Origin: a bacterium
GTDB taxonomy: Bacteria; Patescibacteriota; Minisyncoccia; Phycocordibacterales; DATDWN01
Length of the DNA stretch: 64,000 bases
Reading direction: 5' to 3'
Assembly: GCA_037134875.1 (NCBI GenBank)
Contig: JBAXLH010000004.1
Location: 1,233-65,232 of the forward strand
Within the stretch, counting starts at the first letter, position 1, and each line of letters starts with the position of its first letter. Shown one piece after another: positions 57,610-60,012 of the stretch. The position numbers and the translations under genes are program-made. The notes under the pieces were generated by a model. The model did not search any database. It had not been told where the DNA came from and saw nothing but the letters and a program-made list of their open reading frames with translations.

Positions 57610-57624
57610 TTATTATAGAAATGG

Positions 57625-57667
57625 AAAACCGGCGGTCGCATAAGCGAACCGCCGGTCGTTTTTTTGC
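57625..57667 (+). terminator. rho-independent terminator after trmB-like gene
   Basis: aaaaccggcggtcgcataagcgaaccgccggtcgttttttt. Confidence 0.55.
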
Positions 57668-58171
57668 CGGATACTCCGGCGGGTAAATGTACAACTTGCT
57701 TCCCTTGCCCAATGATCTCACAGGGTTGGGAAGCCAAACTACTCTAGTCGCCCATCTGAGGGCTCCTTTCTTACAAAATCGAGATTCAGTGGCTGACTGG
57801 ATTCAGTCATGCCACCTCCTAACCGTCATGTTTTGGTTAGGAGGCGACACAACCTTCGTCTAGTCGAACATGACACCACCTCCTCTCGTCTGACTACTTT
57901 TACTAGTCTAGCAGATCAAAAACAAAATGTCAATAGATTTTGACATTTTTTGTCTATTTTAACACAAAACTCTTTATTTTTAGCCATATTTAGTGAAAAA
58001 TGATGTTTTTTGGCGAAAACATCATTTTTTTAGTGTAAAATAATAAAAAATTATGTCAAAAATTTACAAAAAATGTTATACAAAATTAACACAAAATAAA
58101 AATCAATATCAAAAAAATAGCTTAAAATAAGGCAAATTTAGAATTTGCACAAACAAAATATGAAAAAGTGT

Positions 58172-58209
58172 CAAAAATGCTTGACAAAAAATAAGAAAAG
58201 ATGTAAGCT
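58172..58209 (+). promoter_or_regulatory. promoter with palindromic upstream motif TGTCAAAAATGCTTGACA driving GC-rich region 2
   Basis: -35 TTGACA 58181-58186, 17-nt spacer aaaaataagaaaagatg, -10 TAAGCT 58204-58209. Same tgtcaa-N6-ttgaca palindrome as at 47127. Confidence 0.45.
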
Positions 58210-58216
58210 CTTGCCA

Positions 58217-59097
58217 GACATTTGAAATGAAGTCTGTAGAGACAACACTTTTACTTCCACTTGGGGAGCCGGGATCGCACAAACTTAGTTGCGAGCGGCC
58301 CCGAAGCGGGGGTGGAAGGGTGTCACACAGATGCTCTCTCGGGTTATTACAGAATTCCCTTGCTCAGAATTCTGTAATGACTCTGGAGAGTCATAGTGAG
58401 GTTGCCCAAAGCACAGAGTATTTATGAAAATGAATACTGTGTGCTTTAGGCAACGGTCTGCGGGACTAATGCCGAGCGGTCAGTATCGCTACAATTGCCG
58501 GAATTTGGTGGTGGTTGTGGCAAGGACTGCGAAGAGTGTGCCGATCCTCCCTGTGGGGAGATGGGTTGATGCTACCAGTTCGGTGTGTGGCACGCCGGAC
58601 ATATGCTCCGGGAGCTCCCGTAACAGAGCAGAACGAGAAACCGAAAATGGTTACAAACCGTTTTCGATGGCCACATCGCAAACGTACCATTTTCCTCGTT
58701 CACCGAGGGGGCTAGTCCAAAAGGATGGCCATACACTCGGACCGCACATTTTTTATGCCGTGTATCTTGTGCAGAGATACATTACGGCATGTTAGGGGGC
58801 TCCTCCCACCAGTCTAGACTACCTGGACGCATAGGATCACAGGGGTGGTCAGGTGCGTTTCGTGTGACGACAGTGTCGCATGAAAAAAGCAGGAACACTG
58901 GTAAGGGGTAATGGGTTGACGCCCAGGGAATTCTGGTCGTCAAACCAGAATTCCTACTGCACACAAGTTCTTTTTTCGCCCGAGTACGTGACTCGGGCTT
59001 CCGTTTGAGAAATGAATATCCTACATTCATTTTCCAAACGGGAGAAATCCCAAGTTCTTTCAAATGCCGGCGGGCAAAAAACGCAGAAAGGAGAAAA
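58217..59097 (+). ncRNA. unclassified GC-rich structured non-coding region (~880 nt), possible large ncRNA or long leader
   Basis: About 57% GC with no credible ORF in any frame. Dense hairpins (ttacagaattc...gaattctgtaa; gttgcccaaagcacagagtattt...atactgtgtgctttaggcaac; ggaattctggtcgtcaaaccagaattcc; cgcccgagtacgtgactcgggc). Confidence 0.35.
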
Positions 59098-59470
59098 GAT
59101 GAAAAATATGATCATCTTTCTGTTTGCGATGCTACCATTTGCGGTAGCGGAGAAGGTGCCGAAATCGGCCGTTGCGCCGGTGGTCAAGCAGGAGGTCGTG
59201 CAGACCTCCACAGCTTGCCCTTCGTCCGTTGTGGCGAAGAAGGCACTGGTGGCACCTGCCCGGGCAATCCGCGTGGTGACCCTTCCTCCGGTCGGCTGGC
59301 CCGACTGGCTGGTGTGGTCACTCTGCGGAGTGGTCGCTACTCTCGCTCTGGTGGTCGCGTTCCTTTTGGGGCGTGTCACGGGGCAGGTGCACCAGCCACA
59401 GGTAGTGGCGCCGGTGGTGTACGTTCAGCCACCTCCTCCACCAGATCCTCCACGCGTAGTGCGACCATAA
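59098..59470 (+). CDS. GC-rich small secreted/membrane protein, hypothetical
   Basis: RBS aaaggag, then ATG; 124 aa with a signal peptide (MKNMIIFLFAMLPFAVAEK), an internal TM, and a Pro-rich C-terminus. Confidence 0.4.
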
Positions 59471-59606
59471 AGGTTGCGCAGGGTTGAGACCCCAGAAAAG
59501 ATCTCGCTCCAGTAAACAAAATCCGACATCCCCTGTCGGTCGGGAACAAAAAAGTTCCCGCTTCTACCAAAGTTTGTTTAAAAAATAAATTTTGGTAGGA
59601 GCGAAT

Positions 59607-59882
59607 ATGGTTATCAGGGCAAAAGTGCAGTGGGGTTTCGCCGAGGAGGCGTCTGTCGAGAAGGGTCAGATCGAGAAAAGTTTCTCGATCCGGCAACTCG
59701 GCAAAGCGGGCGCCGTGAAGGCGGCAAACGACTGGCTCGGGGAGAAGTTTCCGGGTCGGGAGTTTCGGACGGTGCAGAGTGTTCCCGATGCGGTAAAGTT
59801 TGTCGCATCGTGGGGCGCTGGACCGTTCGGTGCCTGGGGTAACAACTGGATCACGGCTGACATCGAGGAAGCCGAGAACTAG
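59607..59882 (+). CDS. GC-rich small hypothetical protein
   Basis: RBS taggag, then ATG; 91 aa; followed by terminator 59960-59990 (caaccactgcgagtttcgggtggtctttttttt). Confidence 0.4.
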   Translation: MVIRAKVQWGFAEEASVEKGQIEKSFSIRQLGKAGAVKAANDWLGEKFPGREFRTVQSVPDAVKFVASWGAGPFGAWGNNWITADIEEAEN

Positions 59883-60012
59883 TCCAACCGTCCGGGAGAC
59901 ATAGGGACGTAAAATCTGTGTCGATACTGGGTGATGCTCACCAGTTGCTAAAAACGAGTCAACCACTGCGAGTTTCGGGTGGTCTTTTTTTTAAATTTGA
60001 TATACTGGGAAT

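Follow-up and report, generated by a model that had tools for sequence, protein, structure and literature searches.

The 64-kb stretch of bacterial DNA analysed here (64,000 nucleotides (nt), called the window throughout) carries a GC-rich locus in which a trmB-like regulator gene is followed by an AT-rich spacer with divergent promoters, about 880 nt free of conserved genes, and two small open reading frames (ORFs), ORF-A and ORF-B. The mean GC content of the window is 39.2%, and that of the GC-rich block 50-61%. The original prediction had taken this block, from its composition, to be of foreign origin, and had suggested that its long structured leader could be a large noncoding RNA (ncRNA), a ribozyme or intron remnant, or a regulatory leader. 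All the elements that it listed were recovered where it had placed them, including the terminator, the spacer, the palindrome and both ORFs. Two of its figures needed correction: the ~880-nt stretch, put at 57% GC, measures 50.3%, still far above the window mean, and the first ORF, put at 124 amino acids (aa), encodes 123. The locus is laid out as follows.

56848-57609, plus strand: gene for a trmB-like winged-helix regulator of 253 aa (assigned by Pfam PF01978 and synteny)
57628-57665, both strands: bidirectional intrinsic terminator common to the trmB-like gene (plus) and a minus-strand RNA, with a GC-rich stem and a tail of U7 (plus) or U4 (minus)
57666-57900: structured segment, 50.6% GC
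57901-58200 (spacer proper 57901-58168): AT-rich spacer with divergent promoters, 21% GC
57905-57933, minus strand: promoter of the minus-strand RNA, TTGACA (57933-57928), 17 nt, TAGACT, with TG upstream
58169-58186: palindrome TGTCAAAAATGCTTGACA, overlapping the -35 element of the main promoter
58169-58209, plus strand: main promoter, consisting of the palindrome, -35 TTGACA at 58181-58186, a 17-nt spacer and TG-n-TAAGCT at 58202-58209
58216-59098, plus strand: gene-free structured stretch, 50.3% GC
59099-59470, plus strand: ORF-A, 123 aa, 61% GC
59471-59606, plus strand: inter-ORF RNA, including the second copy of a terminal hairpin module
59607-59882, plus strand: ORF-B, 91 aa, 59% GC, GC at third codon positions (GC3) 0.71
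~59960-59993, plus strand: terminator of the plus-strand transcription unit, a stem then T8 (from sequence and fold)

Contigs of six independent assemblies (Logan, ENA, JGI) carry the exact ORF-B protein, and 57500-60100 is 100% identical in these assemblies, both junctions with the low-GC flanks included; the check for chimerism or a contig join therefore found no join. The order of trmB-like gene, AT-rich divergent promoter region, GC-rich gene-free stretch and ORF-A recurs in about eight diverged relatives (DNA fetched around ORF-A homologues, with order judged wherever enough context was present), and is kept in L007/8, L009, L010, L013/15, L016 and the contig carrying P0010. Between the trmB-like gene and ORF-A the relatives have a stretch of 1.2-3 kb with few or no called genes, and they repeat the GC profile of the window: a moderately GC-rich segment, the low-GC spacer and a long stretch at 50-60% GC. 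The outer flanks vary among loci, with ClpP, ribosomal protein S15 or HU at the left and assorted genes at the right. DNA identity of trmB across the relatives is only ~63%, and the arrangement has therefore outlasted a long divergence. Because the same GC-rich architecture stands beside the trmB-like gene in diverged relatives, its high GC is an old, maintained property and not a recent import, and the foreign origin read from composition is unsupported for the RNA and ORF-A. The high GC of the RNA stretch is what would be expected for structured RNA.

Sequence comparison identifies 58216-59098 as a genuine structured plus-strand RNA, either a large ncRNA or a regulatory leader; that part of the original prediction is borne out by a conserved promoter and by covarying helices in the relatives. 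The minimum free energy of the stretch is -394.9 kcal/mol, compared with -285.6 ± 7.7 kcal/mol in shuffled sequences (z = -14.3), and the minus strand reaches -331.1 kcal/mol, so that the plus strand is favoured by 64 kcal/mol. The RNA and its terminal modules are divided as follows.

58216-58397, plus strand: 5' domain, with a start hairpin, a clamp helix (~58250-58260 with ~58308-58318) and a lineage-specific long hairpin (58334-58390)
58398-58750, plus strand: core domain of ~350 nt, with a long hairpin (58401-58454) followed by a multi-helix junction
58751-58975, plus strand: 3' domain, with a conserved hairpin (58755-58790), an H-type pseudoknot and ACUGCAC (58956-58962)
58976-59056, plus strand: terminal module copy 1, with GC hairpin A (58978-58998), hairpin B on a CUUCC:GGGAG base (58998-59044) and GGGA-GAAA-UCCC (59040-59051)
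59535-59606, plus strand: terminal module copy 2, with hairpin A' (59541-59560) and hairpin B' (59559-59603)

Six distinct copies of the core were found by nhmmer and a covariance model: the window, L016, L018, L011 and L017 carry the ~350-nt core, and L013 has the core together with a second type of central domain, the group-1 block. In a 5-sequence alignment of the core with 91 predicted pairs, 86% of cells are paired, compared with 38-42% when the partners are slid by 1-3 columns, and 43 pairs have changed on both sides, compared with 19 ± 3 in shuffles and 7-17 when slid; we regard these covariation figures as strong indications rather than formal significance. The core junction holds many invariant unpaired bases and is closed by an invariant helix, UGCGG (58459-58463) with CCGCA (58742-58746), which is neutral on structure because it never varies. 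The 5' clamp helix (UUCUGCUUCCCAC / GUGGGAGCGGAA) is kept in all 7 loci. In the pseudoknot (58916-58955), stem 1 pairs 58916-58921 with 58938-58943 and stem 2 pairs 58926-58937 with 58944-58955; this topology is retained in 4 loci (window, L011, L018 and L009), both stems covary, and the invariant ACUGCAC lies next to it. Counts of G-U versus A-C cells read on the plus strand are 41:14, 27:2 (hairpin B) and 19:3 (clamp helix), and this excess of G-U therefore points to plus-strand RNA rather than to DNA hairpins.

The loci thus hold two unrelated central domains, the ~350-nt core or the ~830-nt group-1 block, the latter absent from the window. The group-1 block lies upstream of ORF-A at L007 5080-5935, L009 4418-5256, L010 2651-3427 and L013 4816-5462, with 69-81% identity between loci and 188 predicted consensus pairs; the block probably represents another new structured RNA domain of large size. 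No diverged cores were detected in L007, L009 or L010 by the covariance model. The distance from promoter to ORF-A ranges across loci from 600 to 2460 nt.

In all loci the terminal module comprises a GC hairpin, a hairpin based on CUUCC:GGGAG and a GGGA-GNRA-UCCC element; the window has one module before each of ORF-A and ORF-B. Alignment of 13 copies of hairpin B, copy 2 included, revealed compensatory changes in 11 of 16 pairs, a conserved U-G wobble and an AU-rich upper stem. The inter-ORF RNA is 72% identical to L007 6226-6564 and also occurs in L010 and L011. Within it, hairpin B' sequesters AGGAG (59597-59601), 5 nt upstream of the ORF-B start codon. Two other identities were considered for these hairpins and rejected. 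Hairpin A was flagged as an intrinsic terminator by a scan, but its U-tract is inconstant across copies; integron attC sites are not matched either, since the hairpin ends misfit RYYYAAC / GTTRRRY and the hairpins stand back to back without cassettes.

Every frame of 58216-59098 contains at least eight stops. Counted by codon position, substitutions in the core (206/204/188) and in the group-1 block (263/241/258) show no 3-periodicity, and translated similarity among the gene-free stretches is short and fragmentary, falling in all six frames on both strands. With no Pfam match in addition, a decayed or frameshifted gene was rejected, and the frameshifted longer ORF that the original prediction had considered for 58217-59097 was not found. 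Its statement that the ~880 nt hold no ORF stands in so far as no conserved ORF is present; a 123-codon ORF does exist at 58424-58795. This ORF starts in the loop of the long hairpin and is a gene call in L003, L004 and L006. It has no Pfam match, the homologous region in the relatives lacks codon periodicity, and it is almost certainly a spurious gene call.

Rfam 15 (4227 models, including OLE, GOLLD, ROOL, HEARO, raiA, RNase P, tmRNA, 6S, group I and II introns and self-cleaving ribozymes) was run over the window at gathering thresholds and returned five tRNAs only, all outside the locus. At E ≤ 10 the region 57500-60100 yielded miRNA-type noise only, and no match was obtained at gathering level in 8 related loci. 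The suggestion of a ribozyme or intron remnant is thus not sustained, as no Rfam family matches even at E ≤ 10, and checks for a known intron or phage region by Rfam and blastn found none. Nothing similar came from sensitive blastn searches of phage DNA (50,697 records) and plasmid DNA (72,556 records), and IMG/VR pattern scans gave chance matches inside coding regions only. Pfam, PHROGs, PADLOC and NCBIfam had nothing for ORF-A, ORF-B, the internal ORFs or the ORFs without homologues (ORFans) that neighbour the locus in relatives. No description of the large RNA was found in the literature. The RNA is apparently a new family in sequence and fold, as yet undescribed, and in kind it resembles the large ornate bacterial RNAs of unknown function.

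One relative carries a ribozyme-like element beside the core. At L011 1028-1080, between a 130-aa ORF and the core homologue and 8 nt upstream of the core, lies a type III hammerhead (RF00008) whose CUGAUGA/GAAA core is intact and whose cleavage site is GUC; it scores 40.6 bits (E = 1e-7), short of the gathering threshold of 48.5. A scan of 34 loci and the window found the hammerhead core pattern or Rfam match in L011 only; it is absent from the window and all other loci.

ORF-A encodes a protein with a signal peptide, a single transmembrane helix and the tail HQPQVVAPVVYVQPP, in agreement with the secreted or membrane protein originally predicted, and has 13 homologues. The family pattern is a variable signal peptide, one conserved Cys, a GWPDW motif, the transmembrane helix and the tail HQPQVVAPVVYVQPP; the cytoplasmic tail is Pro/Val-rich, not basic. 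Substitutions in the conserved C-terminal block are distributed over the codon positions as 580/416/1236, and because they concentrate at the third position, unlike those of the RNA core, ORF-A is judged to be a real, conserved gene for a single-pass membrane protein. No second ORF-A paralogue was found in any locus. A 12-codon upstream ORF (59064-59102, MPAGKKRRKEKR*) ends in a TGA that overlaps the ORF-A start codon (ATGA), and has no obvious Shine-Dalgarno (SD) site. The standing of ORF-B as a gene is uncertain: searches of 5.8 billion and 1.84 billion proteins (a word-index search and a full HMMER search), closest relatives included, found ORF-B itself alone, and it sits where long open frames are common. 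It does possess a plausible SD site, and its single-sequence AlphaFold2 model is of moderate confidence, with a predicted local distance difference test score (pLDDT) of 77; compared with PDB folds, the model reached no template modelling (TM) score above 0.41 among the top-ranked matches.

The AT-rich spacer contains two divergent near-consensus sigma-70 promoters, each overlapping a TGWCA-N8-TGACA site. The main promoter is kept in 7 loci as AGTGTCAwAAAtnCTTGACA-N17-TGTATACT, followed by CCAGA; it was missed by a promoter scan because the -10 hexamer of the window is weak. The minus-strand promoter was also called by the scan; it lies within the palindrome TGTCAATAGATTTTGACA (57928-57945) and is conserved in L007, L009, L010, L013 and L016. 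Perfect palindromes of this kind occur three times in the 64-kb window, compared with 0.13 expected: at 58169-58186, at 57928-57945 and in the promoter of an orphan RNA at 47128-47665. The trmB-like gene is the left neighbour of the locus in all relatives with context. Its product has an N-terminal winged-helix domain (PF01978, residues 9-77, 56.7 bits against a cut-off of 25.6) and weak PDB matches to TrmB and TrmBL2 (E = 3e-4). A search for the C-terminal sugar-binding effector domain gave 34 and 32 bits with the NCBIfam TrmB and TrmBL1 models (cut-offs 600 and 650), over residues ~6-156 only, and the protein is, by its domain content, a TrmB-like regulator that lacks the sugar-binding domain of true TrmB.

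The orphan structured RNA candidate at 47128-47665 (RNA at 47165-47660, ~500 nt, 57% GC, folding z = -6.8) is preceded by a TTGACA promoter that lies within a copy of the palindrome (TGTCAAAAGTGCTTGACA), ends at a terminator of its own, and has no Rfam match even at E ≤ 10. It shares with the main locus only a 46-nt promoter-upstream region (58141-58186, 83% identity), and kinship of the large RNA with it was rejected on that ground.

Leftward from the spacer runs a second, smaller RNA. The segment between trmB and the spacer was aligned in minus orientation across six loci, and contains the following features in the window.

57628-57898, minus strand: leader-like small RNA of ~270 nt, its 5' end taken from the promoter
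57860-57884, minus strand: mini-ORF 1, AGGAGGTG, 5 nt, ATG TTC GAC TAG (Met-Phe-Asp-stop), the ORF itself at 57860-57871
57809-57850, minus strand: conserved hairpin pairing a CCUCCU arm with an AGGAGG arm, 16 pairs
57744-57766, minus strand: mini-ORF 2, GGAG, 7 nt, ATG GGC GAC TAG (Met-Gly-Asp-stop)

The order promoter, mini-ORF 1, 16-bp hairpin, mini-ORF 2, further hairpins and terminator shared with trmB is conserved in all 6 loci. Folding z-scores of 57666-57900 are -7.3 on the plus and -8.0 on the minus strand, and the hairpin shows compensatory changes in 9 of 16 pairs, with 12 G-U and 0 A-C cells in minus orientation. The boxes GCCACCTCCT (57811-57820) and ACCACCTCCT (57875-57884) and the hairpin arms 57810-57824 / 57835-57849, described from the plus strand in the original prediction, are present. 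Its reading of the CCACCTCCT boxes as anti-SD-like took the wrong strand, as they are the complement of the minus-strand AGGAGGTG SD sites: the SD sites and mini-ORFs are conserved on the minus strand, and the CCACCUCCU boxes are therefore to be read as their complement and the segment as a minus-strand leader-like RNA.

Across the six loci mini-ORF 1 encodes MFD*, MGDF*, MED*, MID*, MFD* and MED*, with an invariant AGGAGGT in front, and ends ~10 nt before the hairpin 57809-57850, a feature of SD-driven leader ORFs. Mini-ORF 2 has across these loci the form (A)AGGAG, 7-9 nt, ATG-NNN-GAC, and encodes MGD*, MWDSPFGKK*, MWDNPVE*, MSD*, MLD* and MFDEKVK*. All 12 mini-ORFs have Asp as their third codon, one of them using the synonymous GAT, which argues for a constraint at the level of translation; codon 2 is free, and 8 of the 12 stop directly after Asp. 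The pattern of an SD site with a Met-X-Asp mini-ORF has three matches in the window, compared with 0.09 expected, and two of the three are these mini-ORFs. The minus-strand RNA is most likely a translation-coupled sensor or a minigene.

We read the locus as a lineage-specific, RNA-centred gene module of uncultivated bacteria rather than a foreign island, and consider the chances evenly balanced that its large RNA is a cis-acting giant leader working with ORF-A; the transcript ends, the cis action and the functional steps are what we infer from the arrangement. The rightward unit of ~1.8 kb would comprise the 5' clamp helix, core, pseudoknot, terminal hairpin module, ORF-A, second module and ORF-B. 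The core and pseudoknot would form the sensing or scaffolding part of the giant leader, and the CUUCC:GGGAG-type (anti-SD-like:SD-like) hairpins would control how ribosomes reach the small ORFs. The TrmB-like protein would be the probable regulator of both promoters, binding the TGWCA-N8-TGACA sites, and the leftward ~270-nt RNA, with two mini-ORFs around a covarying hairpin, would act as a translation-coupled sensor or minigene. A cis leader is favoured because the core lies upstream of ORF-A, because hairpins bury SD sites and because the terminal module can itself supply one. In five of six loci the core stands 145-480 nt upstream of a same-strand ORF-A homologue, and in the sixth it precedes another small ORF. 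The SD of ORF-B is buried in the window and, by separate hairpins, that of ORF-A in L016 and L018; in L007 the GGGAG of hairpin B is the ORF-A SD, 6 nt from the ATG.

Several points weigh against a giant leader. A leader of 600-2460 nt for a 123-aa protein exceeds by far the cis-regulators known to us. In most copies, window copy 1 included, no start codon lies near enough for the GGGAG of hairpin B to serve as its SD. On the minus strand no regulated gene lies downstream, as the RNA runs into the terminator 57628-57665 and then the antisense of trmB. The covariation alignments hold 4-7 related sequences (13 for hairpin B), and their shuffle control is not a probability. Four further points count against the leader in that a free-standing ncRNA would accommodate them about equally well: in L013 the core comes after ORF-A; in L007, L009, L010 and L013 the unrelated 830-nt block holds the core's place upstream of ORF-A; the hammerhead 8 nt upstream of the core in L011 suggests that the RNA is processed into separate pieces; and the promoter-upstream region is common to the orphan RNA 47128-47665, as expected of stable-RNA promoters.

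The alternative is then a free-standing stable large ncRNA, or several processed RNAs, acting in trans or as a ribonucleoprotein with ORF-A in the manner of OLE/OapA, with co-transcription reflecting gene organisation only; we give it a substantial minority share of the probability. It accounts for the size of the RNA, its ornate fold (z = -14.3), the multi-helix junction with invariant unpaired bases and the pseudoknot, and for a strong promoter that matches the one of the second orphan RNA at 83% identity over its 46-nt upstream part. It would also explain why the core is movable and interchangeable, since it follows ORF-A in L013 and is missing in L007, L009 and L010, why a hammerhead lies directly 5' of it in L011, and why a small membrane-protein gene always adjoins. 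However, between the RNA and ORF-A the window has neither a terminator nor a conserved processing site, the U-tract of hairpin A is inconsistent across copies, and the cytoplasmic tail of ORF-A is rich in Pro and Val rather than basic.

That the GC-rich block is a horizontally acquired mobile-element or prophage remnant, with hairpins that are incidental or element-specific DNA or RNA signals, appears improbable. It would explain the GC content of 50-61% against 39% for the window, the lack of an ORF-B homologue together with its GC3 of 0.71, the same signature in a second ORFan (45041-45808), and the variable ORFan-rich region 3' of ORF-A in relatives, which sometimes holds a tyrosine integrase and an ORF6N/Rha-like gene. 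Yet in about 8 relatives the RNA, promoters and ORF-A keep their synteny and have diverged vertically, all beside the same trmB-like gene of host composition; there is no phage, plasmid or IMG/VR match and no PHROGs or PADLOC family, and integrases occur only further downstream, in some relatives. Covariation with a G-U strand bias, moreover, points to selection on the transcript. ORF-B alone, with no homologue and its high GC3, is still compatible with a foreign or de novo origin. A decayed or frameshifted protein gene at 58216-59098, or an assembly chimera spanning the whole block, deserves hardly any credence: GC-rich DNA does leave long open frames, and the ORF 58424-58795 is called in some assemblies, but the stops in every frame (at least eight in each), the non-periodic substitutions compared with 580/416/1236 in ORF-A, the missing Pfam match and the identity of six independent assemblies over both junctions speak against them.

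The region 3' of ORF-A in the relatives is a variable hotspot of small ORFans (L007 8391-10039; L014 4969-5895 compared with L013), and some strains have a tyrosine integrase and an ORF6N/Rha-like gene there. L013 and L014 are identical upstream and differ in the presence of the integrase, and the structured-RNA locus may therefore border an integration site. The ORFan at 45041-45808 encodes 255 aa with two predicted transmembrane helices (62% GC and GC3 0.75 in a 39% GC genome, a compositional signature like that of ORF-B) and has its own TTGACA-N17-TATAGAAT promoter near 44918; searches of the PADLOC, PHROGs and NCBIfam libraries gave it no match. The locus terminator is followed by a NUDIX gene and, further downstream, by a PemK/MazF-like toxin gene (PF02452, 60526-60930) that has no obvious antitoxin ORF upstream; in L007/L008 a PemK-like gene (102-527) adjoins a second trmB-like gene (514-1263).

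The family is so far represented by about eight distinct metagenomic sequences of one clade. Gene content indicates that the host is probably a bacterium of Candidate Phyla Radiation (CPR)/Patescibacteria type. Among GTDB representative genomes, ORF-A peptide patterns gave no match and the RNA pattern gave 10 chance matches only (≤22 bits with the covariance model). A search of JGI metagenomes for further copies returned the L009 contig again and nothing else, and one of IMG/VR returned none or chance matches.

Within the RNA-centred module proposed here, the core and pseudoknot could together be a large functional RNA of a new class, which would serve as sensor of a ligand or protein, as scaffold or as catalyst and work with a dedicated small membrane protein in uncultivated bacteria of ultra-small size. 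The Met-X-Asp minigenes could be a new translation-coupled sensor that monitors, for example, the charging of Asp-tRNA, RF1 or the capacity of peptidyl-tRNA hydrolase and feeds the same TrmB-controlled switch; we put this forward as a tentative and rather unlikely possibility. To our knowledge only about a dozen classes of large structured bacterial RNA have been recognised, so that such RNAs are rare, and each class that has been studied, such as RNase P, tmRNA, OLE, GOLLD, ROOL and HEARO, revealed unexpected biochemistry. The present RNA apparently belongs to a bacterium of CPR type, and the RNA biology of that group has hardly been explored. The locus offers several handles: its regulator gene is dedicated, the partner membrane protein is conserved, the central domains are interchangeable, and there is a pseudoknot as well as, in one relative, an adjacent hammerhead. 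The conserved Met-X-Asp mini-ORFs with their perfect SD sites are a separate puzzle. The case also carries a warning for annotation: before a GC-rich "island" in an AT-rich genome is called foreign, it should be examined for structured RNA, and gene callers place spurious ORFs in such islands, as here at 58424-58795. The interest of the locus to RNA biologists is fairly high, limited by its narrow distribution.

Several known systems share features with the locus. The likeness to a type III hammerhead (RF00008) is confined to the relative L011, and the window is without the CUGAUGA/GAAA core pattern. Like SD-sequestering operators (ROSE and fourU thermometers, riboswitch expression platforms), hairpin B pairs CUUCC with GGGAG or AGGAG, and copy 2 and the L007 copy lie at SD distance; unlike them, most copies are off SD distance, a GC hairpin precedes and a GNRA mini-hairpin accompanies it, and there is no Rfam match. 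The minus-strand RNA resembles erm/cat leaders in that a very short, strongly SD-driven ORF stands immediately 5' of a hairpin in which an SD-like sequence is buried; it differs in having no downstream gene, in ending at the terminator that faces trmB and in carrying two copies of the mini-ORF. Lambda bar minigenes sequester a specific tRNA through peptidyl-tRNA drop-off. They consist of an SD site, AUG, one or two sense codons and a stop, and this is the form of ATG TTC GAC TAG and ATG GGC GAC TAG, each behind GGAG. We know of no leader-peptide or minigene system for which Asp at codon 3 has been described. Minigenes in general are treated elsewhere (PMC2490762, PMC8708949).

With GOLLD and ROOL the large RNA has in common its size class of 600-900 nt, metagenomic origin, dense covarying helices and unknown function; it differs in lacking an Rfam match, in neither adjoining tRNAs nor lying in phage contigs and in being presumably co-transcribed with protein genes. 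It is distinct from OLE of Firmicutes in that the Rfam OLE model does not match, the host clade differs and the central domain is interchangeable between relatives. No gene for a multi-pass membrane protein of the oapA type adjoins it, and ORF-A, with its signal peptide and single pass, is unrelated to OapA and has no Pfam or NCBIfam match, so that the arrangement is analogous only. The analogy with OLE/OapA extends to a function that is not deducible from sequence, to an RNA that is large, ornate and GC-enriched although its genome is low in GC, and to the gene for a small membrane protein that lies beside it on the same strand.

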